A stretch of DNA of 64,000 nt from positions 2,404 to 66,403 of IMG/VR virus record IMGVR_UViG_3300046517_001051. One strand, written 5' to 3'. A model generated the notes under the pieces. That model did no database searches, had not been told where the DNA came from, and was given only the letters and a program-made list of their open reading frames with translations. The DNA is from a virus. Below, piece by piece: positions 12,017 through 33,498 of this stretch (positions are counted from its first letter, which is position 1; each line of letters begins with the position of its first letter). A program made the position numbers and the translations under genes.

Positions 12017-12596
12017 CGGTCTGATCCTCTTTCTTCTCGTTGAGCCCACGCTTTTTGCGGAACACGGCCACGGCATCGGTGTGGGCGGCTACGATGCCGG
12101 GCGGTGGGTTCTCGCCGCGAGATTGCATCTCGGCGACGAGCTTTTGCATCTCAGTGAAGCTGAAGTCCAGGCGGTTGGTCGCGATGACCTCCTCTGGGAC
12201 CTTCAGCCAGCGGAGCAGCTCGACGTACTCACGCGAGCCGCGCTTGGGGAGGCGGGGAATCGTCGTGACCTCGGCGCTGGCGGTGGCCAATTCGCCCTCC
12301 AGCTTGAGGTCCTCGCCGCGCAGGGCATAGGAGCACGCCTCGCCGGCGAGCCGGCGGCCGGCGAGGAGCTGCTTCGCGTCGCAGTTCTTCCTCATGTCGT
12401 CGAACGCATTTCGCATCTCGCGGAGGAGGTAGCCGCAGTCGACAAGGTCGTCGCGCGGCACCTGCTGGACCGCGTTCTGGAACTCGAAGAGCAGCACCCC
12501 GGTCCGCGTCCAGAGGGCCTTCGCCTCTGAGTACAGCGCCTGGAGGTCCGTCTTCATGACGTGGTCACTCGTAGTCTTCGTCGCGTTGTCTTCCAT
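12009..12596 (-). CDS. Hypothetical replication-module protein
   Basis: Long ORF between the DUF3820-like gene and SSB. Confidence 0.6.
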   Translation of the reverse strand: MEDNATKTTSDHVMKTDLQALYSEAKALWTRTGVLLFEFQNAVQQVPRDDLVDCGYLLREMRNAFDDMRKNCDAKQLLAGRRLAGEACSYALRGEDLKLEGELATASAEVTTIPRLPKRGSREYVELLRWLKVPEEVIATNRLDFSFTEMQKLVAEMQSRGENPPPGIVAAHTDAVAVFRKKRGLNEKKEDQTDE

Positions 12597-12828
12597 GTAG
12601 CTTCTCAATCTCGCGGTCTTCCTCAGCATCCATCTCTAGGGCGCGGCGCGACTCGTTGATGTAGACGAGGATCGCCGTCTTGTCATAGTTGTCCGGCACC
12701 AGGTTGTCCCCGAGCCACAGCAGGTAAGCAGCCGGGACGTCGCGCAGGGCCTGCCCTCGGTATTTGCCGAAGGGCATCCGCGTGTCATCGGTGAACCGCT
12801 CCGCGCGAAGGTCGGGGCGCTCAGGCAC
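12565..12828 (-). CDS. DUF3820-like small protein
   Basis: 'MPFGKYRGQALRDVPAAYLLWL' signature. Confidence 0.8.
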   Translation of the reverse strand: MPERPDLRAERFTDDTRMPFGKYRGQALRDVPAAYLLWLGDNLVPDNYDKTAILVYINESRRALEMDAEEDREIEKLHGRQRDEDYE

Positions 12829-14221
12829 TAGGGTTCCCCCGCGGGTAGACTGCCTGCTTTAGGTCCGCCGTGCGGAGGGCCTTCGCGGACCCAAACAGCT
12901 CGCTGCCGCACCGTGGTTCCCCTTCGTTGTCGTCGGCGCAGTGGAGACAACCCGTCGGCGCGCAGGCCTTCACTTCCTCGAACCGGTCTCCGAGGTTGGC
13001 TCGCGAGAACATCGGGACCTTATGCCCGTGGCACTGGTCACTGGTGATGAAGTCTCGACCGATCGAGATGCCGCGCTTGCTGGTGATCTCGTCGGAGATT
13101 GGGTCCCTAGCGTACTTGTACTCATAGCACGTTGCATACGTCAGGCCCAGTGCGGCGGCCCGCTGCGAGTAGCGTCGATGCCCCTCCAGCCGGTAACTCT
13201 CCTCGACGGTCTTCTGACCGCCGATGTTGTCCTTGAAGAGGCGCTCGAACTCACCACCACGCTCGGGGCCGAACCGTTGCTTGATTCGATCAACCATGGC
13301 CGGCGCCCAACTGAATCCCGCCTCGACGAACTTGACGATGACGTGATCTGCACCCGCTTCCTTCAAGAGGCCAAACAACGTCTCGACGTCGGAGTGAGTG
13401 ACCACGCCGGGGACGATCGGGTTGCACTGAATGCTGACATAGATCCCCGCTGCCTTCAGCATCCGGATCTGGTCAAGGTGATCCTTGAGAGGGAGGGCGC
13501 CGGGGCTCAGCTTCTTCCAGTCTTCGGGAGACGGGGTGTTGATTGACTTCTGGGCGTAGCTGTATGGGTTCTGCTTCAGGAGATCGACGGCCCACGACGG
13601 GTAGGGGAGTCGCGACAGGAAGAAGATCGGCACACCCTGCTCAACGAATGCTTCTGCTCCTTGCTGCGTGTTGTGGTAGACGTCTTCCAGCGGCAAGAAC
13701 GGGTCCGTGAAGGACGAGAAGTAGCCGGCTGCCACCGTCTTCAACCGAGACAATTGAGAGCGAACTTGCGCCCCGTAGTGGACAGGGACTGAGACAACAC
13801 CCGAGCCTCGATAGCCGCGGAACCCCGAGTTGACGTAGCAGAAGGCACAGCCCACCGTGCAGTACCCGCCATAGGGCTCGGTCAGGATTGCATCCGTGAA
13901 GCATGGGCGGGGTCGACTCCGCTCGTCGGGGTCCGTCTTGCTCTGGTACCAGCCTTGCAGTGGCTTCGCTGAGTCGATGCGGATGTGAGGGAGGGGCTCC
14001 AGGTAGATCCGGACGTCTTTCTTGTTCTCATCCTCTGCATTGCGGACCATGCCGATGCGGGCGGTGCGCGACTTCATGATGCGGCCCGTCAGCTCGTCAA
14101 ACTCTTCGATGATCGGCCCAAGATCGTCCTTCGGCTCTGGCCGCATGAAATACTGGTACGCCTCACGCGCGGGCTCATCGGAGCCCTTCATCCCGTCTTG
14201 CAGCCAAGCAGCATGATCCAT
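12821..14221 (-). CDS. Radical SAM enzyme (SPL-like); predicted glycinyl-thymidine isomerase of DNA hypermodification
   Basis: CxxxCxxC 'CTVGCAFC', 'SSFTDPF', additional C-terminal Cys cluster; adjacent to a PLP enzyme as in M6/YuA-type phages. Confidence 0.8.
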   Translation of the reverse strand: MDHAAWLQDGMKGSDEPAREAYQYFMRPEPKDDLGPIIEEFDELTGRIMKSRTARIGMVRNAEDENKKDVRIYLEPLPHIRIDSAKPLQGWYQSKTDPDERSRPRPCFTDAILTEPYGGYCTVGCAFCYVNSGFRGYRGSGVVSVPVHYGAQVRSQLSRLKTVAAGYFSSFTDPFLPLEDVYHNTQQGAEAFVEQGVPIFFLSRLPYPSWAVDLLKQNPYSYAQKSINTPSPEDWKKLSPGALPLKDHLDQIRMLKAAGIYVSIQCNPIVPGVVTHSDVETLFGLLKEAGADHVIVKFVEAGFSWAPAMVDRIKQRFGPERGGEFERLFKDNIGGQKTVEESYRLEGHRRYSQRAAALGLTYATCYEYKYARDPISDEITSKRGISIGRDFITSDQCHGHKVPMFSRANLGDRFEEVKACAPTGCLHCADDNEGEPRCGSELFGSAKALRTADLKQAVYPRGNPSA

Positions 14222-14223
14222 GG

Positions 14224-15024
14224 TTAGCCTATGTTCCAGAAGAGAGTTGGGACTGAGTCCTGGAACCTAGTGAGGTACCAGCGCAGTGCCTTCAGGTCGT
14301 AGTATTCATTGCACGGAAATGGTGGCGTGATCCCCGCACGAGCAACGTCTTTGTAATCGTAACCTTCATCAACGATGAGTAAATCCAGTGGCGTCCGCTC
14401 AGTTCTCGATTGCTGTCGGAGGTAGCCCTCGACCTCCGTTGCAGAGCGCGAGTAACCGAGATGTATGACGAACTTTGGGGGCTTCTTTGCGCGAACGAAG
14501 CCCATGACGACGCCAGCGGCGATCGTCGCTGAGCTGGCAGGGATCACCACCCTTTCCACAGACAGAGAGGCAGGGACCTCATCCGCCGTCTCCTCGACGG
14601 ATTCAACTAGCTTCAGGGCATTCGGCATCATATAGGCGTTGGGGTCTTCTCGCATGAGCAGCTTGCGGGCGCCATGATAGATCACGCTAGAACGCCCCGC
14701 TGGGATCCCTCGTAGCTCGGCCCCCAGTTGCTGAGCTGCAAGCTGTTGCGGTGGAATGCCGGGAGCAGAATGAGCATAGAGGGGGTAGAAGTTGATGCAT
14801 CGCTTCCCCAACCGTTGGCAGGCAAAGGCCACGGCATGGCCGGCTTGTGAGTGTGATGTGTCTAGCACGCCGATGGTCTTCGCGCTCAGCTTCGAGAGGT
14901 GAGCCCAGACCCCGCGAGCCTTCGAGAAAGGCGGCCCCGGCGGAAGACAGGATAGGTCCTCCCTCTTCACCCAGCAGCGAAGGGTCTCACGATGATCCTC
15001 GACCGGCGTGTTGTGCTGGATCAC
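14224..15024 (-). CDS. PLP-dependent fold-type II enzyme; predicted DNA amino-acid decarboxylase
   Basis: 'TPVE...WVKREDL...FSKARG' (Schiff-base Lys) and 'YYDLKA'. Confidence 0.8.
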   Translation of the reverse strand: MIQHNTPVEDHRETLRCWVKREDLSCLPPGPPFSKARGVWAHLSKLSAKTIGVLDTSHSQAGHAVAFACQRLGKRCINFYPLYAHSAPGIPPQQLAAQQLGAELRGIPAGRSSVIYHGARKLLMREDPNAYMMPNALKLVESVEETADEVPASLSVERVVIPASSATIAAGVVMGFVRAKKPPKFVIHLGYSRSATEVEGYLRQQSRTERTPLDLLIVDEGYDYKDVARAGITPPFPCNEYYDLKALRWYLTRFQDSVPTLFWNIG

Positions 15025-15377
15025 TGAGAGACCTCATCCTCACAATACTTCGGGTCGAGGAGTCGCAGCTTGTAGTCATTGTGGCGGGCGTCGTAGATGA
15101 GCGCCTTGACCTGGCCGATGGGGTGAAGCTCGGATGCGACCATGAAGAGCATGACGCAGAGGGCGATGTTGCCGGTGACCGCAATGCAGTCGAGATCGGG
15201 GTCGAAGTCGAGGTCGCCAAGAGTACGCGCCATGTCTGCCATGCACTCCTTCGGGTTGAAGATCCCGCTCGGAAGACGCCGGTTGTCGTCGTAGAGGAAG
15301 ACGATCTCGCCGTGCTTCTCCGCCGATGCGACGTCGAACCGGCACTTGGAAACGAAGAAGACTTTGCGTCGCGTCAT
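15021..15377 (-). CDS. Hypothetical phage protein
   Basis: ATGA overlap with the helicase stop; 'FDVASAEKHGEIVFL...TGN'. Confidence 0.65.
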   Translation of the reverse strand: MTRRKVFFVSKCRFDVASAEKHGEIVFLYDDNRRLPSGIFNPKECMADMARTLGDLDFDPDLDCIAVTGNIALCVMLFMVASELHPIGQVKALIYDARHNDYKLRLLDPKYCEDEVSQ

Positions 15378-17452
15378 GCGGCCTCCGTCAGGTTCAGCAC
15401 TGATCTCAGCACCTCTCGTAGGTTGAGGGTCGAAGCAGCCATGTCCAGCTTGCCGTTGACCCGCTTCATGATCTCCTCGTCGATCGTTCCCGGCACGATG
15501 AGGTCGACGACCTGGACCGGCATGCGCGTGCCGCGCCGGTGGGCTCGATCCTCGGCCTGCGACCGAAGGATTGCGGACCAGTTCGAGCTGAAGAACACCT
15601 CTAGGTCGCAATAGGTATCTGTCGCACCAGGGTTCCGGGTGTCGTAGCCGAGGAGGTTCAGGCCCTCGGCGGCCGTCTGCGGGTTGCAGACAAGAACCTT
15701 GAACTCTGGGTCGCAGTTGAAGGCATCGACGAGCTTGTCACGCTCTTGAGCCGAGACACCGCCGAAGTACGTGCCGTGCTTGATGCCGGCCTTCGTTAGC
15801 TCCCCGGAGATGCGCTCGATGTTCTGGATGAAGTTGCACCAGACGATTGTCTTGGCCCGTGGGTCGCGCTCGGGATCCTGGAGCAGCTCCATGAGGGCAT
15901 CCACCTTCGGGTTGGTGGGCGCCAGCTCCTCGACTCTCTTCTGCTTCAGGACGTTCCCATCGGGGTCCACCTTGCCGTCGAACGTGATGAACCCGCTGGT
16001 GATCTGGGCGAGGCGGAGGAGCTTCGTGAGGACGTGGCCAATCGTCATCTCGTCGACGACCTTACCCATCGAGTCCTTCAGCTCCAGAGCCAGCTCCTCG
16101 CTGACGCGGCTGTAGACCTTCGCCTGGTGGAGGCTCATCTCGACCTCGACGACGCTCCGCACCTTGTCGGGCAGCATCAGACCGGCCTCCTCCTTCGTCA
16201 CGCTGAAGCTCATCCGGGCAAGCCTCTCTTGTAGAAGTGGCACATGCTTCAGCCCAATGAGCTTCGCCACGCCCTGCTGGGCATAATAGTTGTGCTGCTT
16301 CCAGATGCCGTGAAAGTCCTTGAACGCCTTGAACGTCGAGAAGCCGCTGGCTCCTTCCCGAAGGAACTCCAGCTGCGCCCAGAGGTCCATCGGCGTGTTG
16401 CCGATCGGCGAGCCGGTGAGGATCTGCCGGCGCTTCGACGAGTCGCGGAGTGTGATCGCCGTCTTCCAGCGGAGGGAGCTGCGATCCTTGAAGAAGTGCG
16501 ACTCGTCGGCGACGGTGATGTCCCACGGCATCTGCTGGAGCCACTCCAGCGTTGTCCTCGCCGAGTCATAGCTGACCACCGCGACGCTGAAGAGGAGGTC
16601 GTCCTCAGGCGCGATTACCTCGGCGATGCGGTTCACGCGGGTCGCCTTGTCGCCGCGGATGACGGCGACCTTGCCGGGCACCGTGGCAAACTTCTCGAAC
16701 TCGCGCTGCCAGTTGAGGCGGACCTGCGCTGGGCAGAGCACGAGCACCAGCATCATCCGCCCGCCACCGCGCCGTGGGACGCCGCCCTTCATCTGGCCCG
16801 AGGACAGCAGCTGCGCCTCGGTGCAGACTCGCTGGATGAAACACGCCGTCTTGCCGGTGCCTCGATCCATGAAGAGGGCGAACGCATCAGAGCGGAGTGC
16901 GAGGCAGGTTGCGGTCTGCTGATAGGGGCTCAGGCGAGCCTCGGCCCGCTCCCTCCAGCAGTCGGGGGGCTTCGGGACCGTCCCGCTCAGCTTGAACTCC
17001 GCGGCTCGCCGGACGGTCTGGTGCCCCAATGCCTCGATGGCGCTGGAGGCGCGGAAGATCTGCTGCGCCGTCTCATTGACGAAGACGAGTTGCTCCCTAG
17101 GCCAGGATCGGTTGATGACCTCCAGGGCAAACGATGTCGCCGGCGTCCGGTAGGTCTCCGACTTCTCGTGATAGCGAACCTCTGGGAGTCGCTTCCAGAG
17201 CTGGCGGGATGCCGCGCTGGCCGAGTCCCAGTGGTCGGCCATCTCTTTCTCGCCGAGCTTGTACGTCTGGCCACCGATCCTCTTGGTTGGCGACGACGCG
17301 GCGACGAGAGGCTTGATGCGGAGTCCAAGATGGGTCAGCTTCTGCGACGCGGCGACGAAGAGGTAGTCATGCGAGTGGACTGGAATCGGCGAGAGGAACT
17401 TCTTAGTCACCTCTGACAGATCCGCGTCGTCGTACTCCTCCGCGAAGTCCAT
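15374..17452 (-). CDS. SNF2-family SF2 helicase/ATPase
   Basis: 'MDRGTGKT', 'ADESH', 'LTGSP', 'EGLNL', 'QAEDRAHRRG'. Confidence 0.95.
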   Translation of the reverse strand: MDFAEEYDDADLSEVTKKFLSPIPVHSHDYLFVAASQKLTHLGLRIKPLVAASSPTKRIGGQTYKLGEKEMADHWDSASAASRQLWKRLPEVRYHEKSETYRTPATSFALEVINRSWPREQLVFVNETAQQIFRASSAIEALGHQTVRRAAEFKLSGTVPKPPDCWRERAEARLSPYQQTATCLALRSDAFALFMDRGTGKTACFIQRVCTEAQLLSSGQMKGGVPRRGGGRMMLVLVLCPAQVRLNWQREFEKFATVPGKVAVIRGDKATRVNRIAEVIAPEDDLLFSVAVVSYDSARTTLEWLQQMPWDITVADESHFFKDRSSLRWKTAITLRDSSKRRQILTGSPIGNTPMDLWAQLEFLREGASGFSTFKAFKDFHGIWKQHNYYAQQGVAKLIGLKHVPLLQERLARMSFSVTKEEAGLMLPDKVRSVVEVEMSLHQAKVYSRVSEELALELKDSMGKVVDEMTIGHVLTKLLRLAQITSGFITFDGKVDPDGNVLKQKRVEELAPTNPKVDALMELLQDPERDPRAKTIVWCNFIQNIERISGELTKAGIKHGTYFGGVSAQERDKLVDAFNCDPEFKVLVCNPQTAAEGLNLLGYDTRNPGATDTYCDLEVFFSSNWSAILRSQAEDRAHRRGTRMPVQVVDLIVPGTIDEEIMKRVNGKLDMAASTLNLREVLRSVLNLTEAA

Positions 17453-18437: not shown

Positions 18438-18994
18438 GTCCGCAGCTCATTAGCGTTGGAGAATCCGGCCTTGTGCGCGGGGGCGTCGTGGGCTCCGTCG
18501 CCCCAGCATTCGGCGCAGGTCGCGGTCGTCGCGACGTTCGGCCCGTAGCACAGTAGCGTCGCCGGCTCCACGAGGCAAAGCTGGCATGGCGTCGCGCTTG
18601 TTCCAACAGGGGACTCAAAGCTCACTGGGCGCACCGGGAGGTCCTCGACCTTCGTGATGGAGACGGTCCCTTCCAGGATTTGCTTCGCCTGCGCCTGGCG
18701 AGGAAGCTGACGGGTCTCAACCATCTCGTCCTCGACCAGCATGAGGTAGCGGCGCAGATCGCGCACGTCATCGATCGCCCCCTCGCGGCGCGTGTCGAGT
18801 CGGATCGTCTCGAAGATATCGTTGTGAAAGTTCTTGACTCGATTCTCCAGGCGGTCCCACTTGCGGGCCAGAACAAAAAATGCTCCGCTCCCGCCACGCC
18901 TCTTCCACGAGTCGCCGTAGGACTTCTCCGCATCCACGAGGCCGGCGACGTCCGCCTCTGCGATCTTCTTCAGCCGTTCTTCGAGTCTAGTCAT
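18434..18994 (-). CDS. MazG-like/Nmad1 all-alpha nucleotide pyrophosphohydrolase (dTTP/dUTP removal predicted)
   Basis: 'EKSYGDSWKRRGGSGAFFVLARKWDRLEN...DDVRDLRRYL'. Confidence 0.7.
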   Translation of the reverse strand: MTRLEERLKKIAEADVAGLVDAEKSYGDSWKRRGGSGAFFVLARKWDRLENRVKNFHNDIFETIRLDTRREGAIDDVRDLRRYLMLVEDEMVETRQLPRQAQAKQILEGTVSITKVEDLPVRPVSFESPVGTSATPCQLCLVEPATLLCYGPNVATTATCAECWGDGAHDAPAHKAGFSNANELRT

Positions 18995-19481
18995 CCGACC
19001 TGCTCCATGAGTATGAGTTGATGAACATCTTCATTTCGGCGGGCAGCTCCTTCCGACGGAAGTACTGCCAAGCCTTGTCTCGCATCTTCGCGACGTGCTG
19101 ATTGCCGAGGGCCAGCTGGTCGTCGCACCACATGATCAGCTCCAGGGAGTCCGCGCAGCCGAGCCAGTTCGCCTCCTCGGTGTCCAGCTCCGGCAACTCG
19201 TGGGCCTTGTCTGTTGCCTCATCATCCTCGGCCTGGATCATCCCCTCGTCGAGCATCGGATGCTTCCACTTCGCCGGCGCCGGCACGTCGCCGAGCCAGC
19301 GCTCCAGGTGGTCGTGGCATAGCGCCGCCTCGACGAGCGCGACTGACGGCGACGGATGGAGACACAAGAGGATCTGCGCCACGTTGTAGCAGTGGAGCCC
19401 GACCGAGTAGGACCCGTGGTGCGGTGTCGTGTGGCACCGCTCGACGGCGCCCGACTCCCTGCGGTGTTGGATGCTCTTCAC
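18987..19481 (-). CDS. HD-domain 5'-deoxynucleotidase (YfbR-like)
   Basis: 'VERCHT...SVGLHCY...ALCHDHLE...GDVPAPAK...ADSLE'. Confidence 0.85.
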   Translation of the reverse strand: MKSIQHRRESGAVERCHTTPHHGSYSVGLHCYNVAQILLCLHPSPSVALVEAALCHDHLERWLGDVPAPAKWKHPMLDEGMIQAEDDEATDKAHELPELDTEEANWLGCADSLELIMWCDDQLALGNQHVAKMRDKAWQYFRRKELPAEMKMFINSYSWSRSDD

Positions 19482-20500
19482 TTCGGCAGCTCGATCTTCG
19501 GGAACTCGTTGGGAGCATCCTTGGCTGCCTTCGTGTCGGCACGCTGCGCCAGCCAACCTTCACAGGCGACCTTCCAGTCACTCTTGGGGTCCGTGTCTGC
19601 GTGCCACTTCGGCTCGCGGGTCTCCCACATCTCGCGCATCGGCTCGGCGATCGTCTTGAAAAAGTGCGACTTCTGGCAGACACCCCCGCACATGAAGATC
19701 AGCAGCTCGTCGTCCCACTCGGCGAGCGGCAGGTCGACGATCGGCGTGCTGTTGACCTTCCGGTTGTAGGGGTTCTCTGGATAGTCGTATCCGTCGGAGG
19801 AGAGGTCCGCCATCGCGTACATCAGGTTCCAATGTCTCTCGTAGACGTGGGCGTTGTTACTGATCTGCGTGTAGGTCCCGATCGGGATGCCGATGCCGGC
19901 AGCGAGGTACTCCTGGAGGACGCTGAAGTGCACCGCGTTCGCGCCGTAGCAACCCCAGATGAGGTCGTTGCTGCGGCAGAACACCGTCATGTCGAGTTCC
20001 CCGCCTCCGGCGTTGAACAGCGCGTTGAGGTTGCACGGCACATCCTTCGTCCCCGCCTCGACGGCTCGGGGATCCCCCCAACCGTCCCACATCGAGAGGA
20101 CCTGTCGGCGGTCGTAGGGGTCGCGGGCCAGAGCCTCGATGATCACTGACAGTTGGTCTCGACCGTTGAAGTGCTTGCGCCACCGGTGGCCGTACGCGCC
20201 GTTGAGCGTGATGCCGTCGTCGCTGTATTCGCGCATCTGCTTCGCGTACTTGGCGACGAAGTCGACGTCTTTCCGGCCCGACAACATCCAGAGGGCTTCC
20301 ATCAGGTGGAAGAACGGATTGGCGTTGCGCTCCTCCCACAGCAGGACGCGGTCCTCTGGGCAGGTGTAGACCGTTGTCAGCGGCTCGGGGAGGACCAGCA
20401 CGCTGCCGTTCCTAGATCCCCTCTTCTCGCCTTGGTCGCTCATCAGCTGGCACGCGGCCGGTAGGGCGACGTGAACGCATTCTGCTTCGATCAGTTTCAT
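19478..20500 (-). CDS. dUMP hydroxymethylase (thymidylate synthase superfamily)
   Basis: 'NPFFHLMEALWML', 'KDVPCN', 'CRSNDLIWGCYGANAVHFS' (Asn suggests dUMP specificity), 'NAHVY'; gene context. Confidence 0.85.
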   Translation of the reverse strand: MKLIEAECVHVALPAACQLMSDQGEKRGSRNGSVLVLPEPLTTVYTCPEDRVLLWEERNANPFFHLMEALWMLSGRKDVDFVAKYAKQMREYSDDGITLNGAYGHRWRKHFNGRDQLSVIIEALARDPYDRRQVLSMWDGWGDPRAVEAGTKDVPCNLNALFNAGGGELDMTVFCRSNDLIWGCYGANAVHFSVLQEYLAAGIGIPIGTYTQISNNAHVYERHWNLMYAMADLSSDGYDYPENPYNRKVNSTPIVDLPLAEWDDELLIFMCGGVCQKSHFFKTIAEPMREMWETREPKWHADTDPKSDWKVACEGWLAQRADTKAAKDAPNEFPKIELPK

Positions 20501-20501
20501 G

Positions 20502-21395
20502 TTAGGTTCCTGTGAATTTCGAGCGGGGCCGACCCTCGCCGTTCTTGACTCGGAGGTATTTGTCCGTCTCGCAGAGCGAATGCTCTATGTCCCGAAGTTC
20601 TAGCTTCGGGAACCCCTCGGGAAGCCGGCTAGGGGCCTCCGGGAGGAGGGATCTCATGAGGGATAGAGCTTCCTCCTTCCGGAAGGGAAAGTCGAGCCTG
20701 CGGCCGAGGAGGCGGTTGAGTCCCCGCAGGGCTCCCGGCCCCGCGTTCGCCCACGTCTCGACGTCCGGCGCCCCGACTAGGTAGCGGGTGTGGCGGAGAT
20801 CGGTGACGACCTCATACGACATGAACGGCCCCCAGCCGTGATAGTTCAGGAGGCGCTCCCAGCATTCTCGCAGCGACCGCTGCCCGGTCTGATCTAGGAA
20901 GTAGGTCCACAGCTCGCGATCGTCCCAGAGTCGGCCGAGGACGATGCGCGCGATGTATTGCTGTTTGGTCCACGAGTACCAGGCGCAGCTGGAGTCCGAC
21001 TCCGCGCGGATCATGTAGGCGCCAGTATAGACTTGGTCGCCGCGAGCCTTGATCCGGTCGAGGACCTGGCCCATGACGTGAGGCTCGAAGCTGTGCATAC
21101 AGGGCCACGAGCCCTCGCTGTTCATCAGCTCGCGCAGCGTCGGTGGGTGGTTGATCGTCCGAGCGATCGCCAGCATGAGCCAGAGGTGTGGGTGCGATGG
21201 CCACATCTCGCGGATGTTCTCGCGGATCCAGACGGTCACCTTGTCCAGCTCGCGGAAGACGTTGCAGAACCGGTATTGCTGGAGGATCGGGTCCGCCGTC
21301 CAGGGCTTTGGTTGCCAGGCGGCGCGGCGGTCGTAGATCGCCTGGCGCTCCGTCATCCAGTACCAGAGAGGCTCGGCATTCACGAGGCCAACCAC
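20502..21395 (-). CDS. aGPT-Pplase1 / 5-hmdU DNA kinase helical-domain protein (HhH glycosylase fold)
   Basis: 'ERQAIY...PWTADPILQQYRFCNVFRELD', 'GPFMSYEVVTDL', 'GPGALRGL', 'DIEHSLCETDKY'. Confidence 0.85.
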   Translation of the reverse strand: MVGLVNAEPLWYWMTERQAIYDRRAAWQPKPWTADPILQQYRFCNVFRELDKVTVWIRENIREMWPSHPHLWLMLAIARTINHPPTLRELMNSEGSWPCMHSFEPHVMGQVLDRIKARGDQVYTGAYMIRAESDSSCAWYSWTKQQYIARIVLGRLWDDRELWTYFLDQTGQRSLRECWERLLNYHGWGPFMSYEVVTDLRHTRYLVGAPDVETWANAGPGALRGLNRLLGRRLDFPFRKEEALSLMRSLLPEAPSRLPEGFPKLELRDIEHSLCETDKYLRVKNGEGRPRSKFTGT

Positions 21396-21949
21396 TTCTC
21401 AATTAGGGCCTTCTCCTCGCCAGTAGGGCCGAGGATGGCGACGCTGATGGAAGGGTGCGCCAATGCGCGCTTCTTCGTCGCCTCGATTGCTCGAACCTTG
21501 TCGCGCACTAGGTCTTCCTTGATCGGCTGCCCGCCGTTGCGCACCTGGATGCGTCGGAGGCACTCCTCGACCGGTGTGTCGAGGTAGGCCCACAGAACTC
21601 GGCGACCGACCGAGGCCATCTCATCGGCGAATGTCGCCCAGGATCCGAAGACTGTTGAGCAGAGGATTCCCTCGGCGAAGACGTTGCCTGTCCCCAGCTC
21701 GAAGGACCGCCGAATCGCCTCGCGCTGGATGTCGAATGCCCGGATGGTGTCGAGGCCCCCAATCTTCTTCGGATCCTCGGGGTACCGCCCCACGAGGACG
21801 TCGCCCTTCAGGTTCATCTGACCGACAACCAGGAGCTTGCGGCTCGGGTCGTTGATGAGGTGCAACTCTAGCCCGTTTGGGAAGAACGACCTTGCCAGTG
21901 TCGACTTGCCAGAGCCATTGGTTCCGCGGATGTTGATGAACGCTCTCAT
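21380..21949 (-). CDS. P-loop kinase, 5-hmdU DNA kinase type
   Basis: 'INIRGTNGSGKST', 'GGLDTI', 'FAEG', 'LDTPVEECLRRIQVR'. Confidence 0.85.
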   Translation of the reverse strand: MRAFINIRGTNGSGKSTLARSFFPNGLELHLINDPSRKLLVVGQMNLKGDVLVGRYPEDPKKIGGLDTIRAFDIQREAIRRSFELGTGNVFAEGILCSTVFGSWATFADEMASVGRRVLWAYLDTPVEECLRRIQVRNGGQPIKEDLVRDKVRAIEATKKRALAHPSISVAILGPTGEEKALIEKWLAS

Positions 21950-22353
21950 GACAGCAGCGCCTCGCGGAGGCCCCGGGCCTTCAATGTGATCTCGGTCATG
22001 ACCGCGTCAAACTCTTTTGAATCCCCGGCCAGCCAATTCGGATCTTTGATATCCAGGCGGATCCTGCGCTGAGGGATGGGAAGATTGGAAGACCACAACT
22101 CTATGTTGTTGCGCCGATCCATGAGTATCATGACGTCGGCTGCTTGGATCATCTCTGCACTCACCTGCTGGCTGCGGTGCTGTCCAAGGTCGATGTCGTG
22201 GACTCGCAGCATCCACCGCCGCACTTTCGCCGCCGCCTTGCGGCCGCCAGGGAGGAAGCCAGCACTGGTGACGGTGAGCGGTGGCCCGCTGATGAGCGCC
22301 GCGACGGCGGGAGAACGGCACACGTTGCCGTGGCACAGGACTAGGACGTGCAA
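21946..22353 (-). CDS. Low-molecular-weight protein-tyrosine-phosphatase/ArsC-fold phosphatase
   Basis: CX5R loop 'VLCHGNVCRSP', 'SAG', 'HRSQQV', 'IKDP'. Confidence 0.9.
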   Translation of the reverse strand: MHVLVLCHGNVCRSPAVAALISGPPLTVTSAGFLPGGRKAAAKVRRWMLRVHDIDLGQHRSQQVSAEMIQAADVMILMDRRNNIELWSSNLPIPQRRIRLDIKDPNWLAGDSKEFDAVMTEITLKARGLREALLS

Positions 22354-23237
22354 GCTAGGATCTCCTTGATGTTGGCCTCGACCTGATCACGGCTCAGCAC
22401 GCCGTTGTGGCAGGTCTTCCGCCACCCCTGCTCCAGTCGGTGCTGGTAGGGCTCGAACTTCGGGAACTCGGAGTTGGCATGTTCGGCCAGCAGCGCCACG
22501 ATGGGACGGTCTTCCAGGGCAGCAACGAGAAAGTCTCGGCACCAACTGACGCACGTCTTGACGACGCTCGGTCTCAGGGTCCCCGGGAAGTGCCGGAACT
22601 CGATGGTTGGAACATCCTCCCGGAGGTGTCGGAGGTTCACGGCGCAGCGCTGAGTCAGGTGCCACTGTGGCTTGCCCTCATGGGACCTCGGGCACTCTGC
22701 CGCGAAGAACTCTTCTGGAGTCTCCGCCCCCATCTGAGCCCGCTGACGATCGGCGGTGAGGATCGTCTGGTGGCTCTTGTGGCGCCGCCGGTACCTCTTC
22801 ATCGCGCCGTTCATCTCATCACTGGCACTGTAATCCCTACGCTGCGGCATGGGGATCGGCTCGATGAGGGCGAAGACCTCCCGAAGGTGCTTGAAGCAGT
22901 ATGCCGAAACTCGTTTCAGCGCTGCAAGGTCGTGCTCGATCGCCGGCACCTTCACGTGGACGTGGAGGTTGCTGCGGTAGTTGACCCGGGCCTCGGGGTG
23001 CATGGCCAGGAACGTCGCGAGGTGCTCCGCCTGCCCATCGGGGGTGTGCGTCGGCGGGGTGTTCAGCTCACCACCAAGGTGGAACACGAGCCCCTTCGGG
23101 TCCACCGCGACGCCGCAGGAGTTCACCATGGTGTAGTCCTTCAGGTCGAGCCCGAAGCCCAGCGGGATGCCGCGCTCGCGGTGCCAATCAACCAGCTCAT
23201 GCTCGCAGCCATACGTCCAGTCTTCTGTGCTGATCAC
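22341..23237 (-). CDS. Putative amidoligase (glutamine synthetase/GCS-fold COOH-NH2 ligase)
   Basis: 'TYGCEHE', 'GGELNT', 'NLHVHV', 'RCAVN', 'TIEFRHFPGT'; GTG start overlaps the upstream TGA. Confidence 0.8.
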   Translation of the reverse strand: MISTEDWTYGCEHELVDWHRERGIPLGFGLDLKDYTMVNSCGVAVDPKGLVFHLGGELNTPPTHTPDGQAEHLATFLAMHPEARVNYRSNLHVHVKVPAIEHDLAALKRVSAYCFKHLREVFALIEPIPMPQRRDYSASDEMNGAMKRYRRRHKSHQTILTADRQRAQMGAETPEEFFAAECPRSHEGKPQWHLTQRCAVNLRHLREDVPTIEFRHFPGTLRPSVVKTCVSWCRDFLVAALEDRPIVALLAEHANSEFPKFEPYQHRLEQGWRKTCHNGVLSRDQVEANIKEILACTS

Positions 23238-24046
23238 CTTGGCATGCCCTCCAAGAATTGCCTCGCCAAGATGCAGTGGGTCGTCCACGGCGCGAGGCCG
23301 TGCCGGATCTCGTCGATGTCCTTCCGCACCTCGTAGTGGCCGCCAACGTGCGACTTCCACTTGCAGAGGATCGTCTCGACCTCCTGCAGTCCGATCGGAC
23401 GGTCGTAGTGCGGCGGGGCGAGACGGCCGGCGAAGTACTCAACAAGGGATCGAGCCGTCGAGCCGACGATATCGAGGGTCGCCGGCCGGCCGCGCATGTT
23501 CCAGAGCAGCACAGCAGCGTCTCGCGGGGCGTCGAACATCAGGACTTCGCTCTCAGCGAAGCTCACCGGGACGCGCAGGACTCGCTCCAGCATGTCGGCG
23601 ACCTTGAACCCAATCCACTCGCCGAAGAGGTAGTGGATCTTGACGCGGCTCATCACCTGCGAGCAAGTCGTCGGGCCGGCGAACCCGGCGCAGTAGTCCG
23701 CCATCACCTCTGGGTGATCCGGGTATCGCTTCCGGAGGCTCTCAACGCACCGGACGGCCGCCGTCCCGCGCATGTGCCGGCGCTCGGCCCCTCGGGGCCA
23801 CCTAGACCCGCAGGGGCTCAGCTCGTCGTTCCGGGCCGCCGTGGTCGCCCTGGCCCAGAATCCCGCCGCATCCGGCGCCTCCGCAAGCCAGGAGGCCGTC
23901 CCCGCATGATAGAAGGCCCAGTAGCCGAGGAGCCATCTCCGGAGGGTCGCCGGCGGCCAGTCGACCCGGGAGAGGGCGAGGTACACGGGGTCGAGGTCCT
24001 CGGTGTCGAGGAGGGCCGTCCCGAAGTCTTCGATGGTCTGGGTCAT
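23234..24046 (-). CDS. Amino acid:DNA transferase (aGPT-Pplase2 clade)
   Basis: 'DLDPVY', 'YWAFYHAG', 'WPRGAERRHMRG', 'FGEWIGFKVADM', 'QEVETILCKWKSH'. Confidence 0.85.
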   Translation of the reverse strand: MTQTIEDFGTALLDTEDLDPVYLALSRVDWPPATLRRWLLGYWAFYHAGTASWLAEAPDAAGFWARATTAARNDELSPCGSRWPRGAERRHMRGTAAVRCVESLRKRYPDHPEVMADYCAGFAGPTTCSQVMSRVKIHYLFGEWIGFKVADMLERVLRVPVSFAESEVLMFDAPRDAAVLLWNMRGRPATLDIVGSTARSLVEYFAGRLAPPHYDRPIGLQEVETILCKWKSHVGGHYEVRKDIDEIRHGLAPWTTHCILARQFLEGMPR

Positions 24047-24381
24047 TCGATCTCCTTGAGCAGCTCGGCGACGTCGGACACGAGGTCTATCGACCTGATC
24101 CCACCAAAGGCATCTATGACCTCATGGCACTCGCGCAGCAGCTCGACCGCGCGCAGGAAGGCTGCGGCGATGCGCGGGGTGTCGTTGCGGGCTGCGGCTG
24201 CGAATCGCGCGTTGTCCGATGCGATGCCGATGTCGGGACTCATGCACTCGGCGATGACGAGCAGGTCGGAGTCTGGCCCACAACGGGTGAGGACACCGCG
24301 TGCGAAGTTGTCCCACGGCCCCGGCGTCGCCTTCTCCGCCAGCGCGATCAGGTCGCGGGCGCGCTGCTGGATGCTGGTCAT
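24043..24381 (-). CDS. Ead/Ea22-like protein
   Basis: 'AEKATPGPW...NARFAAAAR'. Confidence 0.65.
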   Translation of the reverse strand: MTSIQQRARDLIALAEKATPGPWDNFARGVLTRCGPDSDLLVIAECMSPDIGIASDNARFAAAARNDTPRIAAAFLRAVELLRECHEVIDAFGGIRSIDLVSDVAELLKEIE

Positions 24382-24905
24382 GCGTAAGGGATCCATCCGA
24401 GTTCGTGGTCAATCGTCGCGCGGTTCGGCCCCGAGTAGTGAGTGCGGCACACGTCCATCAGCAGTTCCCTCTGGCGTCGCCAGCCCTTGACAATGTCGAA
24501 CACGGTTGCGATGTAACTCTCGTCAAGCGTCATCGTCTCACAATTCGTCAGTCGTTCCGCGAATTTGAGCGCCGCGGGCAAATCGGCGTAGGGACCGTCT
24601 GGTGGAATGTTCCACTTGGGCCGGCACCGGCCACAGGCGGCAACGCTCGGCGCGTGGACCGTCTGGCAGCGCGGGCAGGTCCAGCCATGCGGTGGAGTCA
24701 GTGGTGGCTTGCCCTTGCACACCTGTTCGGCGAGCTGGTTCCAGTTCGCGATTGCACGACGTGGCAGCCTCGCGTGCATGGAGATCACATGCCCCGTCAC
24801 GCCACTGCGATCGCAGCGCACCGTGTAGATGTCGCCCCACTCGTTCCAATGCTGCGTCGGTGCATTCGCGCACCAAGGACACGGGCATGGCTCGACCTTG
24901 CTCAC
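24378..24905 (-). CDS. Lar-like Zn-ribbon protein with second Zn finger
   Basis: 'PCPWC...AIANWN' and 'GWTCPRCQTVHAP...C..C'. Confidence 0.55.
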   Translation of the reverse strand: MSKVEPCPCPWCANAPTQHWNEWGDIYTVRCDRSGVTGHVISMHARLPRRAIANWNQLAEQVCKGKPPLTPPHGWTCPRCQTVHAPSVAACGRCRPKWNIPPDGPYADLPAALKFAERLTNCETMTLDESYIATVFDIVKGWRRQRELLMDVCRTHYSGPNRATIDHELGWIPYA

Positions 24906-28903: not shown

Positions 28904-31127
28904 GATTGGAACGCCGTCAGGACGTCGCTCAGTTGTTGGCGAATCAGCTTGATGTGAGACTGGAGCGCCTCGGCGCAGGGCGGGCAGAGATCCCATCCCC
29001 GACCGAGGTTTCCGTCTTGTCCGTGCGTCTGGAGGTGCACGTGCGCCTTGACCCACCCGGTCGGCAGTGGCTCCGGGTACATCCGCACGTTCTCCGCGGT
29101 GGTCAGGGTAACAGGCTTGAGGCAGCGGTCGCAGTGCAGGGTGCGAGTCTCGCGGATCATGGTTGTTCTCCCTTCCGCAGTCGCCGGTCGATCTCGGCGG
29201 CGATGAGCGCGCCGGCGACCGTGAGCGCCTTGAGGCTTCCGGGCTTGTTCTTCTCTCGGAGCTTCCACAGGTCTTCGACCCACGGGACCAGCAGGCCCAG
29301 TGCGCCGGCAAGGATCTCTCCGCGAGAGTGCGCGTCGTCATGATCGTCCGTCCACTTGACCTTCTGGAGCTGGCGCTCGCACGAGATCAGCGCGACGCCA
29401 GAAGTTGCGGGTGGTGGGTCTTGAGGGACCCAGCCCAGCATCTGCATGACGAGCTTCGGGGACTCCTTCACGCGGTAATGGGACATATAGTAACCCCCGC
29501 CGCCGAAGCCGCCACCCTCGCGGTCGGCGACGACAACCGACGTGGCGTCCTGGCCCTCGCAAGGGATCACGCGGTCGATCTTGTGGCGGTGGAGGCCGAT
29601 CGGGCGCCCGGTCTTGGCGCAGGTGAAGACGACGATGTCGGTCATTGGTTCATTTCTCCTCGTGCTTTGTATTCTCTGAACAGGTCCGCCGCGATCTTGC
29701 GCGCGTGCGCTTCGTCGGGCGCGAAGACGACCACGTTCACGCGACCACCATAGTACGGATTGATCTCGTTACGGTACGCGAGCCGTGACAAGGACGGGCA
29801 GGGATCAAGGTAGACCCCGTCAATGTCGATACCATTCGGCAAACTCGTCACGCTCCAGCAGGGGTCTTTCGGTAGGTCGCCGACCTGAACCTCGTCGAGT
29901 TCCCACTCCGTCACGTCGCCGCCGAGCCAGTCGGCTAGCGTCTTCGCCTTCTCCTCCGTCGAGAAGACGCCGACGACGCTGTAGTCGCTGTAGTCGCCGG
30001 TCTCCACCGCGTAGATCTTGGTCATCAGATGTTCCTCACGATCTCGTCGTACAGCGCTTCCACGAACTTCATGACGTCGTCGCGGAACCGGACGCGGCGC
30101 TTGGCCACGGCGGTGAAGTCGTCCACGGGGATCTCCTTCACGGCCATCAGCTCGGCGTAGATGATGGCCTCCAGGGCGACGCCGAACTGGACCGCCGCGC
30201 GCTGCCGCGTCGGCTCCAGCAGCTTGAAGACCTTCTCGGGGTTCAGTGGTGATCTCATCTATTCAACTCCTCATAGCTGTGAAATCGAGCGAGACTGCCC
30301 AGCGTCTCTCGCGAGTGCTGCGTCATCAGCCAGACAAGCTTTCGGCCCTTCTTGACCCGCTCGTACGTCTTGTGCTCCCAGACGGCACTGTCTCTCGGCC
30401 GAGGCCGGATGTAGTGCGCAGTCTTGACCTCGAAACGCATCAGACCGGCGACACAGCCTCTTCCAGAGGTTCTGTAGTCCGCCTCGCACTTGATATCGAC
30501 GATGACCTCGCCGCGCGCCAGCTTCGGCATCGGGCCACGGATCAGTTCCTGGAGGAGGGATTTCATCGCGGGTCCTGCAGGTCGCGGGGATTGTGACCCC
30601 TCATCTTCTTGATCATCTTCCTGACTCGCCTCTCCTGGGCCTCCACCCTCATGGCCCGCCAGTTGGTCCATGCCAGCCAGAGCTTGATCGCGCCGAGCGC
30701 GAGCCCGACGAGGACCAGAATAACCGTCCACGGCCCCCAGAACGGCGCCGTCACCCACCACCAGCTCCAGTCGATCTTGTCGCAGAGCTTGAGGACTACG
30801 AACGCCACGCCGAGCATGTTGAGCGCCATGCTGGAGGCGACGAGCTGCGTGCCGCGAGTAGTGTCAGTCATGCTTGTATGCCTCCAGCATCTTGTAAGTC
30901 TCCCACAGCGCCTTCTTGATGACCGAGCCTCGCAGCTCGGCGTCGTTGATCTCCAGCCAGGCGGTGCCGCCGAGCCGGTCCGTCTGCTTGACCTCCACTG
31001 CGAAGCAGTCCTCGCTGAGACCGATGACGCGAACGATACTGCCGTGGGCGCGGCCCAAGGGCAAGTACTCGCCCTGCCACACCAGCATCGGCTCGCGCTT
31101 CTCCAGCTCGTGGACTCGCAGCGTCAT
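28900..31127 (-). other. Seven small coupled hypothetical genes (28900-29160, 29157-29645, 29642-30025, 30025-30258, 30255-30566, 30563-30871 membrane protein, 30864-31127)
   Basis: Overlapping stop/start codons; 30563-30871 carries the common phage membrane motif 'LKL...IDWSWWWVTAPFW'. Confidence 0.65.
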
Positions 31128-32611
31128 GACTGGCCCCTCAGCGTCTCGCGGACATTGGCGAAGGTCTGCGTCCGCAGGAAGCAGCCGTCGCGCCAGACCG
31201 GCTTGAGCAGCGAGTGCGACGAGTCGGCGGGGAGCTGATCGCAGAGCACCAGCTTGCCTGACTCGGGACTCTTGAGCACCGCCAGCCGGCCGCGGGCCGA
31301 GTGCTTCGTTCCGTCGTCGGTGGCCGGCTTCTTGTAGAGGTCGCGCGACTCGCCACCGACCATCGCCCAGGTCGCCTTCATGGCGAACCCGAACGTGTCG
31401 CGGGTGACGTGCTGGTAGGTGTAGCTGCCGACGCCGAACACGACGTTGGTCGACGCGAAGCCGGCGGCGCCGAGCCGCTCGACGATCTCGCGCGCCCGCT
31501 CGTACGTGATCGCGTCGCCGTAGATCACGCCGACGTGCGAGTCCAGCTGCCGGTGGCCGGTGCTGGTCCGCGTCCCGCCGAAGACGTCCCAGAGGAGCTG
31601 GACGACGCCCTTGATGGCTGGTCCAGCCGAGACGGTCTGCCCAGTCACCGCGGCGTAGTCGTCGCCGCAGAGGATCTTGACGGGATCACCGCTGTCGGGG
31701 CGGATCACCAGCTTGCCGTCGCGCGCCATGATCTTCGCCTTGAGCGAGGGCAGCGTCTCGGTGAGGACCGACCAGAGGTCCCACGTGTCGGAGACGACCG
31801 ACACGATGCCGGTGGGATACAGGCTCAGCAGGCGCTCGAACGTCTCACGCTCGCCCTCCTCGCCGCCGGCCGACATGACGCTGTGCTCGGTTGCCGGGAC
31901 GCTGCCGCCGACGAGGCCGTTGCCCTCGATATAATGGGGTTGGCCGCCGTAGTACTCGTCGACGAACGGGAGCGCTGGTAACGTGTCGGTCCCCGTGAAG
32001 CTGAGGAGGTGCGCCGCGCCGCTGAGCTGCGCCGCTTCGACGCCGGCCATGCCGCGCATCGAGAAGTCGTGGCCCTGCCAGGGGACGAAGTCCGGGTCAC
32101 CGCCAGTGAGCCTCGCCGCCTCGTCGAGCATGGCGCGGAGCCGGTGCGCGCTCGTCGCCGACGTGCACGGCAGCCAGAGCACGTTGCTCATCAGCGTCTC
32201 GACGTAGTTGACGAGCCAAGCGAAGTCGTCGTGCGTGTTCTCGACGGTCAGCATCGGCACGCGCAGCGGGCAGCGAGTGCCTTCTGGGAGGGCTCTGAAC
32301 TCCAGCGGCACGTGGCCCAGCCGGTGCAGCGCGCGGACGTGGTCGGTGCCAATGGCGTTCGGGCCGAGGTAGCGGTCGACGAGCGTCTTGTACTCGTCGC
32401 AGACGTCCTGCGTCGGCCGCTTGAACCAGGACTCCATCTCCTCGCACAGGTACTTCTGGAGGAAGTACTGGAGGCCAAAGAACACGACGCGGTCCACGCC
32501 CTCGACGCGCGAGCTTCGCGGCGTCCAGTTCGAGTAGACGCGGGTGGTGCCGGCGGGGTACTGGCGCCGGTGGTCCAGCTTGTAGCCGTCGATCAGTAAG
32601 AGGGGATTCAC
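31124..32611 (-). CDS. Nicotinamide phosphoribosyltransferase-like enzyme (NARP1 Namat)
   Basis: 'DGYKLDHRRQYP', 'HDFSMRG', 'SVPATEHSVM', 'VSDTWD', 'IRPDSGDP'. Confidence 0.9.
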   Translation of the reverse strand: MNPLLLIDGYKLDHRRQYPAGTTRVYSNWTPRSSRVEGVDRVVFFGLQYFLQKYLCEEMESWFKRPTQDVCDEYKTLVDRYLGPNAIGTDHVRALHRLGHVPLEFRALPEGTRCPLRVPMLTVENTHDDFAWLVNYVETLMSNVLWLPCTSATSAHRLRAMLDEAARLTGGDPDFVPWQGHDFSMRGMAGVEAAQLSGAAHLLSFTGTDTLPALPFVDEYYGGQPHYIEGNGLVGGSVPATEHSVMSAGGEEGERETFERLLSLYPTGIVSVVSDTWDLWSVLTETLPSLKAKIMARDGKLVIRPDSGDPVKILCGDDYAAVTGQTVSAGPAIKGVVQLLWDVFGGTRTSTGHRQLDSHVGVIYGDAITYERAREIVERLGAAGFASTNVVFGVGSYTYQHVTRDTFGFAMKATWAMVGGESRDLYKKPATDDGTKHSARGRLAVLKSPESGKLVLCDQLPADSSHSLLKPVWRDGCFLRTQTFANVRETLRGQS

Positions 32612-33498
32612 GAGAGGAGCATCCTCGCCACGGCCTCGCGGCCGACGGTCTCAAGGGGGACGACGGTGAACCGATCACTGAGCCCTGATGTCTGCATCGG
32701 GAACGAGTCGGTGGTGAAGATCTGTTGGTAATACTTGAGCAAGTCGCCAGTGCCCTTCGAGAAGATGCCGTGCGACACGACGAGGTCCAGCGTGACGTGA
32801 CGACTGAACGAGGTCAGCACCTCGCCGAGCCCGACGAACGTGCCCCCGCCATCGCAGACGTCGTCCACGACGAGGTAGTGGCCGTGGGGCACCGGCTCAC
32901 AGGCGAACCTCGTCAGCTTGCCGGTGTCCGGGTCGCGGTGCTTCGTCGCCTGGTACACCGGCACATCGAGCATGCGGGCGAAGTCCTCGGCGCGCCGGGC
33001 GGCGCCCGCGTCCGGTTGGATCACGCCGCGATATCCACGTAGCGGGATCGCGTCGACGAACGGATGCGCGGGGTCTATCGCGAGAAACTCCGGGCCGAAC
33101 AGCGCTGCGAGCACGGTGCTGTGAGGATCTAGCACGACGACCGAGTCCAGCTCGTAGGGTCGCAGCGTCTCGGCGTAGACCTTCGCGGTGAATGCGTGCC
33201 GCCCGTCGCGTCGGTCTTGCCGGGCGCCGGGAAAGTACGGGCAGAACAGGCCGAGCTTGCGGGGCCGCTGCGCGCGGACGGCGTCGAGGAGCGCCAGCAA
33301 TGTCAGCCACCCGTCGGCGTCGCAGATCCTCGCGTCGACGTACAGCGCACCCTTCTCGGCATCCTGCAGGTTGACCACGACGTGCGGCTCGCCGCCGGGG
33401 AACGTCAGCGACTGGTGCTGGATCGTCCCGACGACGTTGATCGGGTTCGGCATGACCAGCTCGCAGGCGACCCAGTGGAGCGTGAGCTTGGATCTCAT
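32608..33498 (-). CDS. Ribose-phosphate pyrophosphokinase-like enzyme (NARP1 Adps)
   Basis: 'FPGGE', 'PYFPGARQDR', 'DPHS', 'PDAGA', 'VVDDVCDGGGTF', 'HGIFS'. Confidence 0.9.
   Translation of the reverse strand: MRSKLTLHWVACELVMPNPINVVGTIQHQSLTFPGGEPHVVVNLQDAEKGALYVDARICDADGWLTLLALLDAVRAQRPRKLGLFCPYFPGARQDRRDGRHAFTAKVYAETLRPYELDSVVVLDPHSTVLAALFGPEFLAIDPAHPFVDAIPLRGYRGVIQPDAGAARRAEDFARMLDVPVYQATKHRDPDTGKLTRFACEPVPHGHYLVVDDVCDGGGTFVGLGEVLTSFSRHVTLDLVVSHGIFSKGTGDLLKYYQQIFTTDSFPMQTSGLSDRFTVVPLETVGREAVARMLLS

Follow-up and report, generated by a model that had tools for sequence, protein, structure and literature searches.

A phage-restricted ligase of the glutamine synthetase fold as a candidate amine-capping enzyme in DNA base hypermodification

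What does a ligase that makes amide bonds do in the midst of genes for DNA base hypermodification? The question is raised by the window analysed here, a stretch of 64,000 nucleotides (positions 2,404 to 66,403) of the 66.4 kb IMG/VR record IMGVR_UViG_3300046517_001051 of an uncultured virus, in which the gene for a predicted carboxylate-amine ligase (AmL; 22341-23237, minus strand) directly follows the gene for an amino acid:DNA transferase (ADDT). To our knowledge, the hypermodification steps characterised so far are those of a kinase, a transferase, a radical SAM (rSAM) isomerase, a pyridoxal phosphate (PLP)-dependent decarboxylase, an FAD lyase and an acetyltransferase. Comparison of the window with related loci makes it highly probable that the ligase is a tailoring enzyme of base hypermodification. 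More specifically, and with confidence that is evenly poised, we favour a model in which it would N-acylate a primary amine borne on the base in an ATP-dependent reaction.

Fold and family of the ligase

The four motifs listed in a preliminary description of this DNA (GCEHE, ELNT, HVH and EFR) correspond to G10-C-E12-H-E14, E57-L-N-T60, H92-V-H94 and E213-F-R215, and all of them fall on conserved columns of a family alignment of 34 sequences, with homologues 43-57% identical to the window ligase. Residues G10, E12, E14, E57, H92, H94, E213, F214 and R215 are invariant, and T60 is kept in at least 90% of the sequences. Judging by the family at large, the Glu, His and Arg residues of these motifs are putative ligands of metal, ATP and acyl phosphate. 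An AlphaFold2 model built on the same alignment (pLDDT 95.8, pTM 0.92) was compared with structural representatives by VIA, and the top 19 rows (Z 10.0-6.2, 163-228 residues aligned, rmsd (root-mean-square deviation) 3.3-5.5), separated from a next row at Z 4.2, are glutamine synthetase (GS), glutamate-cysteine ligase (GCL), YbdK, GshF, GmaS-type (gamma-glutamylmethylamide synthetase), PafA or Dop ligases. Foldseek returned the same ligase families at weak scores (E 6.5e-4 and above, TM 0.28-0.41). The GS/GCL fold proposed earlier is thereby upheld, and on the evidence of the predicted structure the assignment of the window protein to this fold is sound. In the GS/GCL superfamily, ATP activates a carboxylate that is then passed to an amine, and by analogy the same chemistry would be expected of the window ligase.

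At the sequence level, the ligase appears to be a divergent, phage-restricted branch of Amidoligase_2. The window protein scores 21.8 bits (E 1.9e-4) against the Pfam model PF12224, the cut-off of which is 22 bits; 33 of 34 ligase relatives match the model at E<=0.01 (best 7.3e-9), among fusion relatives the score rises to 42.6 bits (P0171), and 24 of 120 database homologues among the matches listed carry a precomputed PF12224 label. The ligase has no match in PHROG or NCBIfam, and a search of all PDB chains with the ligase alignment gave chance-level matches to phosphoglucose isomerase alone (E 0.009 and worse). The branch resembles Amidoligase_2 and the GS, GCL, YbdK and PafA enzymes in its fold, in the Pfam match of its relatives and in the conserved Glu/His/Arg motifs, and differs from them in being confined to phages, in being paired with a phosphatase and in featuring a family-specific Arg-rich helix (residues 144-158, consensus GAxRRxRRRRVSHQT). 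The aligned segment of residues 138-162 holds 5-10 basic residues in 34 of 34 sequences, and the helix could be in contact with a nucleic-acid backbone. About one third of the homologues in the alignment carry C-terminal extensions such as TVPR, TLPR or LSR(QR), which are absent from the window ligase. In P0171 (581 aa), two stretches match the ligase family, the better of which comprises residues 305-576, and this protein may be a tandem duplication.

The gene cluster of the window beside M6 and PaMx11

Two described pathways provide the background against which the cluster can be read. In phage M6, the ADDT gp51, the rSAM isomerase gp53, the PLP decarboxylase gp52 and the kinase gp54 are described as producing 5-(2-aminoethyl)-dU (5-NedU) from glycine (PMC8989533). 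PaMx11 is described as making 5-acetylaminomethyl-dU by means of the glycine:DNA transferase gp46, the FAD lyase gp47, which converts N-alpha-GlyT to 5-aminomethyl-dU, the acetyltransferase gp48 and the kinase gp49 (PMC8989533, PMC11472151). The genes of the window that enter into the comparison are the following.

22341-23237, minus strand: ligase AmL, Amidoligase_2-like, with a predicted GS/GCL fold (298 aa, GTG start; by motifs and model)
21946-22353, minus strand: low-molecular-weight (LMW) protein tyrosine phosphatase, LMW-PTP (135 aa, TTG start; LMWPc 6.2e-11; CHGNVCRS P-loop, DP general acid)
23234-24046, minus strand: amino acid:DNA transferase (ADDT / aGPT-Pplase2; 270 aa; Pfam ADDT 2e-18)
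21380-21949, minus strand: P-loop kinase of 5-hydroxymethyl-dU (5-hmdU) in DNA (Pfam HMUDK_HMUD1 5.5e-17)
20502-21395, minus strand: 5-hmdU DNA kinase helical-domain protein, aGPT-Pplase1 type (HMUDK_hel 1.3e-56; E 3.3e-45 to PaMx11 gp50)
19478-20500, minus strand: thymidylate-synthase-like (TS-like) protein, presumed dUMP hydroxymethylase (Thymidylat_synt 4.5e-22; E 7.9e-83 to PaMx11 gp51)
18987-19556, minus strand: HD-domain, YfbR-like 5'-deoxynucleotidase (Pfam YfbR-like 3.3e-08)
14224-15024, minus strand: PLP-dependent enzyme, homologue of the M6 gp52-type decarboxylase (Pfam PALP 1.8e-13)
12821-14221, minus strand: rSAM enzyme, homologue of the M6 gp53-type glycinyl-thymine isomerase (Radical_SAM E 0.001, 19.7 bits, below the cut-off)

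On the minus strand the order is ADDT, ligase, phosphatase, kinase, helical-domain protein, TS-like protein and HD protein, and the single co-directional run of TS-like, HMUDK, HMUDK_hel and ADDT genes, which provides a source of hmdU, a kinase and an ADDT, marks the locus as a post-replicative cluster for thymidine hypermodification of the kind described by Lee et al. 2021. The ligase frame of 298 aa plus stop opens with a GTG (23237-23235) that overlaps the TGA stop of the ADDT gene (23236-23234; the plus strand reads TCAC at 23234-23237), confirming the GTGA junction noted earlier. A GGAGGG is found at 23252-23247, 9 nt upstream of the GTG, and because the homologues in the 34-sequence alignment begin at the same point as the 298-aa frame, this start is preferred over a longer open reading frame (ORF) that reaches 23360. 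At its other end, the last 13 nt of the ligase gene overlap the TTG start of the phosphatase gene. The earlier placement of the ligase between the transferase and the kinase is thus correct for the ADDT flank only: the other direct neighbour is the phosphatase gene, and the kinase gene lies one gene further on.

The window ADDT matches the PaMx11 glycine:DNA transferase gp46 with a phmmer E of 2.3e-76. In tblastn searches, the PLP protein aligns with positions 39282-40112 of phage M6, annotated as 'threonine dehydratase', at 43.6% identity and 100% query coverage. The rSAM protein shares 65% identity, over 99% of its length, with an rSAM / 'DNA repair photolyase' gene that is present, among the matches listed, in the Pseudomonas phages MP1412, AN14 and PAE1. 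To judge from its homologues of M6 gp51, gp52, gp53 and gp54, the window encodes the whole M6-type pathway, to which the ligase gene and the phosphatase gene are added, and the final base is accordingly expected to exceed 5-NedU in mass. Since the M6-type set is encoded, the ligase substrate in the window is probably 5-aminoethyl-dU. As a separate observation, the best phage match of the PLP enzyme is to Pseudanabaena phage Pam3 (50.5%), and two more genes of the window on the minus strand, 11180-12076 and 15021-15611, match Pfam families named after the same phage (gp34-like 1.5e-06 and gp32-like 5.4e-09, respectively).

The comparison with PaMx11 concerns the slot that the ligase occupies. 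The PaMx11 order of gp46 (ADDT), gp47 (FAD), gp48 (acetyltransferase), gp49 (kinase), gp50, TS and HD is matched from gp46 to gp52 by related loci that read ADDT, FAD, ligase, phosphatase, kinase, helical protein, TS and HD, and in the window the homologous ADDT, kinase, helical, TS and HD genes likewise stand in the same order, with a last enzyme between the amine-former and the kinase. What differs is that the slot of the GNAT acetyltransferase gp48 is held here by the GS-fold ligase together with the LMW phosphatase, and that the amine-forming enzymes of the window are of the M6 type and not of the FAD type. No homologue of gp48 was found in the window or in any of the fetched loci; homologues of gp46, gp47, gp49, gp50 and gp51 are present in 35-57 entries each of the searched set, the window included. 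The likeness of the ligase to gp48 is one of position and proposed function, without homology.

We hypothesise the following course of events for the window. The TS-like enzyme would provide 5-hm-dUMP, the kinase would phosphorylate 5-hmdU in DNA, the ADDT would install glycine, the rSAM enzyme would isomerise the glycine adduct and the PLP enzyme would decarboxylate it to 5-(2-aminoethyl)-dU. In the last step, the ligase would use ATP to turn a free small carboxylic acid or amino acid into an acyl phosphate that is attacked by the DNA-borne amine, and the translationally coupled phosphatase would take part in the same step. This would yield an N-acyl-aminoethyl-dU and would correspond, with ATP as the driving force, to the acetyl capping in PaMx11; we know of no cultured phage from which such a base has been described. 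The gene itself, its predicted fold, the conserved residues of catalytic type, the pairing with the phosphatase, the fusions and the context statistics are direct results of the analysis. We infer DNA as the substrate, the amine as the acceptor, the nature of the acid and the role of the phosphatase from this comparison. Acylation of the aminoethyl-dU amine by analogy with PaMx11 had been suggested before, and comparative genomics favours this part of the suggestion through the M6-type rSAM and PLP genes, the gp48 slot and the absence of a gp48 homologue. The accompanying proposal that the acid is glutamate, giving a gamma-glutamyl group, is a guess to which none of the results points.

At the DNA level, the stretch 19000-24500 of the window had no near-identical counterpart in the phage collection. 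At 31124-33498 (minus strand), a NAMPT/NAPRTase-like gene (1e-37) lies beside a ribose-phosphate-pyrophosphokinase-like gene and looks like a phage NAD-salvage pair, and a 251-aa protein encoded at 1914-2669 (minus strand) matches sigma-70 region 2 (2.9e-08).

Distribution of the ligase and its amine-forming partners

In a tblastn search of 50,697 phage records, the ligase matched phage Simon (47% identity) and Vibrio phage 2.275.O (29%) alone, with no match in M6-like or LUZ24-like phages. Of these two, phage Simon (PQ683277.1) is the one with a cluster of FAD, ligase, phosphatase and kinase genes. A word-index protein search gave 500 proteins at E<=0.001 among 1347 candidates, and an exhaustive search of representatives at 50% identity gave 298 at E<=0.001, 229 at 1e-10 and 108 at 1e-30. 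Across prokaryotes (one genome per species, 185,579 species) 8 ligase loci were found, all on contigs of metagenome-assembled genomes, with an ADDT in 7 of them. The family is essentially phage-only or viral. In order to compare gene neighbourhoods, we searched all stop-to-stop ORFs of 82 loci (80 fetched from IMG/VR and 2 GenBank phages) with iterated profiles. An LMW phosphatase is present in 77 of these loci, a P-loop kinase in 71, an ADDT in 70, a class-II glutamine amidotransferase (GATase) in 52, a TET/JBP dioxygenase in 47 and a TS-like protein in 21. Co-occurrence with DNA-modification loci, on which the preliminary description had staked its proposal, is thus the rule among the homologues, with an ADDT in 70 of 82 loci and QueF in 3 more. 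Two further features of these neighbourhoods may be recorded. In one locus (L024, 9394-10008) a gene resembling GIY-YIG/NUMOD3 homing endonucleases interrupts the hypermodification cluster immediately before the ligase gene, and in 7 loci (L002, 10865-11485, and 6 others) an Nmad5 protein, absent from the window operon, is encoded between the helical-domain and TS-like genes.

This distribution bears on the idea that the ligase is a cell-wall or peptide amidoligase, like that of the LUZ24-type module, and stands in the operon by chance. Other phage Amidoligase_2 proteins are indeed assigned to a putative peptidoglycan-modification module, as described in PMC11945000. The neighbours of the window family, however, are ADDT, phosphatase, kinase and TS or TET, GATase, FAD, PLP and QueF genes instead of the GGCT, ATP-grasp and aminohydrolase genes of that module; Pfam scans of representative neighbour genes contained no GGCT or ATP-grasp protein, the phage search yielded no LUZ24-like phage, and context and fusions all involve base-modification enzymes. 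A cell-wall role is unlikely on fold and context, to the point of being hardly credible.

A partner that makes or supplies an amine was found in 77 of the 82 loci, and the other 5 loci are on cut contigs that break off within 1.7 kb on the upstream side of the ligase. Class-II GATase genes occur mostly with TET/JBP and glycosyltransferase genes, about 0.1-1.2 kb from the ligase, and encode an intact Cys1 (MC[AGS][VI] as the first residues in 45 of 50 gene calls). An FAD oxidoreductase like PaMx11 gp47 (38% identity, E 2e-48 to PaMx11) is present in 20 loci, a PLP and rSAM pair stands beside the ligase in three (L012, L025 and L068), and QueF, a nitrile reductase whose reaction forms the aminomethyl group of preQ1, is present in L003 (Vibrio phage 2.275.O), L014 and L020, accompanied by a QueE-like rSAM protein in L014 at least. 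These partner types are mutually exclusive except in L003. With the FAD, PLP/rSAM and QueF partners, the base is known or expected to end up with a primary amine and no carboxylate, and the GATase supplies ammonia. In a quick FastTree phylogeny of 67 distinct ligase sequences, the supports of which were not examined, the ligases from FAD, PLP and QueF contexts are mixed in one clade and those from GATase/TET contexts form another. Amine capping is the simplest model that fits all of these contexts.

The GATase loci admit a reaction of opposite polarity, in which the ligase activates the carboxylate of a DNA-borne amino acid (N-alpha-GlyT, C-alpha-GlyT) and joins it to ammonia or an amine, giving for example a glycinamide-thymidine, with the encoded class-II GATase as the source of ammonia. 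The products of ADDTs carry a free carboxylate, as described in PMC8989533, and a GATase is found near the ligase in 52 of the 82 loci. Furthermore, the GATase-ligase fusion P0236 starts with MCGVIG and has the layout of a classical glutamine-dependent amidotransferase, akin to Asn synthetase, with an N-terminal Cys1 glutaminase followed by the synthetase. In the FAD, PLP/rSAM and QueF loci, however, the partner either takes the carboxylate off or has none to begin with, and a GATase is missing, so that the ligase would compete with its own pathway. The GATase moreover excludes the other amine-makers, suggesting that it takes their role rather than one in the ligase reaction, and no GATase is among the annotated genes of the window, which was not searched with a GATase profile. 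We consider the opposite polarity, the foremost alternative to amine capping, improbable but not negligible.

The QueF loci in turn bear on the suggestion that the ligase acts on free metabolites and pre-assembles a dipeptide, a gamma-glutamyl amine or another donor for the ADDT. The adjacency and translational coupling of the ligase and ADDT genes in the window, as well as the use of free amines and amino acids by ADDTs described in PMC8989533, are in keeping with it. Two complete genomes with direct terminal repeats, G001 (containing L014) and G002 (containing L020), carry the ligase-phosphatase pair and QueF, and no ADDT was found in either by a search that detected one in 3 of 3 positive controls. 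In addition, the ADDT of the window closely resembles the glycine transferase of PaMx11, and in most loci the ligase follows the FAD lyase and does not precede the ADDT. Pre-assembly of a donor, put forward in the preliminary description as the alternative to acylation on DNA, is weakened accordingly, and we regard it as very improbable. In L014, L020 and L003 the ligase adjoins QueF without an ADDT, which may represent a separate use of the module on aminomethyl-deazaguanine. The QueF-context genomes had no Pfam match to TGT/DpdA (PF01702, from which phage DpdA may be too divergent).

The phosphatase partner and the case for amine capping

The LMW phosphatase gene nearly always follows the ligase gene directly, usually with overlapping ends, and its residues C7, G9, R13, S14, D104 and P105 are invariant in 21 sequences. 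This near-obligate pairing, which the preliminary description did not bring up, is the strongest trait of the family. The closest solved relatives of the phosphatase are LMW-PTP, Wzb and YwlE (E 1e-25 to 1e-23; YwlE 2e-23), with ArsC at 1e-9. The two proteins are fused in P0123, P0135 and P0140, and in P0150 a ligase, a phosphatase and a TAGT glycosyltransferase form one polypeptide. Further fusions have the layouts ligase-kinase (P0121, P0022), TAGT-ligase (P0226), GATase-ligase (P0236) and, with a PLP enzyme in front, PALP-ligase (P0255). When the phosphatase was used as the seed of a scan in the reverse direction, 80 loci were retained, and 68 of them contain a ligase (26 already in the set, and 42 of the 54 new ones). 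The pairing is not absolute in either direction. Three long loci (L015, L025 and L068) have a ligase without a phosphatase, and in three of the 12 ligase-less loci (L103, L118 and L119) the phosphatase gene has kinase, ADDT or TS genes around it and no ligase closer than 6 kb, and in L118 and L119 an FAD enzyme like PaMx11 gp47 is encoded as well; the phosphatase can therefore occur without the ligase. Complex prediction for the ligase and the phosphatase scored 0.00 in both runs, which gives no answer and weighs neither way.

Such close pairing could be rationalised if the ligase were a phosphotransferase that phosphorylates the base-borne amine or adds a second phosphate to 5-phosphomethyl-dU (5-PmdU), with the phosphatase removing or editing the phosphate. 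The GS and guanidino-kinase folds are related, and the LMW phosphatase family includes the phospho-arginine phosphatase YwlE, which is among the closest solved relatives named above. The near-obligate pairing and occasional fusion with the phosphatase, the existence of ligase-kinase fusions and the weak VIA matches of the ligase model to arginine kinases and McsB (Z 4.1-3.5) are in line with such a role. These kinases score far below the carboxylate-amine ligases, however, which account for the strong fold matches and the motif pattern; a writer and an eraser in one polypeptide would make little biosynthetic sense, and L015, L025 and L068 do without the phosphatase. On fold and context, a kinase-like role is unlikely, and we give it little credence.

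Within the amine-capping model, the phosphatase may take the phosphate off a masked acyl donor once ligation is complete, correct a wrongly phosphorylated amine, or act as an 'eraser' that clears unreacted 5-PmdU. The last of these is partly supported by L103, L118 and L119 and weakened by the complete genomes G001 and G002, which have the ligase and the phosphatase without an ADDT; no kinase was detected in G001 or G002 by the Pfam kinase model, which also missed the kinases of two control records.

Several observations weigh against amine capping on DNA. Plain N-acylation needs no phosphatase, which leaves the tight pairing unaccounted for, and the layout of the fusion P0236 fits the opposite polarity better. 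In the window, the rSAM and PLP genes are not adjacent to the ligase but lie about 7 kb away, beyond an SNF2 helicase gene, and the ligase itself falls 0.2 bits short of the Pfam cut-off. The lack of a TGT/DpdA match leaves a DNA substrate uncertain for the QueF-context genomes, and the virus, being uncultured, is known here from its genes alone.

The association of amidoligases with hypermodification clusters is already in print, having been noted by Lee et al. 2021, who left the function open (PMC8989533). The main text of that paper does not mention the pairing with a phosphatase, the term 'phosphatase' appearing there once, in sample preparation. A 2025 preprint on T-dioxygenases names, in its available text, GATases, kinases and AADTs, and neither ligase nor phosphatase; by term look-ups, the papers on the PaMx11 enzymes and on diaminopropanyl-thymine likewise name neither, and the phosphatase pairing is absent from the main texts of PMC7824862, PMC13458397 and PMC11472151. 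The M6-type, aminoethyl setting of the ligase-phosphatase pair is new for this window.

A broader version of the amine-capping model would regard ligase and phosphatase as a portable module that extends any aminoalkyl group in the major groove, be it that of 5-aminomethyl-dU, 5-aminoethyl-dU or perhaps 7-aminomethyl-7-deazaguanine, by way of a phosphorylated donor or intermediate that is unmasked by the phosphatase. This extension is tentative and we would not call it likely; if true, it would mean new enzymology on DNA and a family of undescribed amide-linked bases. Association with an M6-type (aminoethyl) pathway, as seen in the window, is rarer than association with a PaMx11-type (aminomethyl) one, and its occurrence suggests that the module tolerates different linkers.

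Phages are shielded by thymidine hypermodifications against restriction and other nucleases that attack their DNA, and any further enzyme with polymeric DNA as its substrate could become a tool. If our model holds, ATP-dependent amide ligation on DNA bases would be a new activity, and one with a family of hundreds of members behind it (298 representatives at 50% identity). If the ligase couples chosen acids to amine-bearing DNA, it could be of use in enzymatic DNA labelling. For the virus itself, the combined activity of ligase and phosphatase would probably give a DNA base that has not yet been described.

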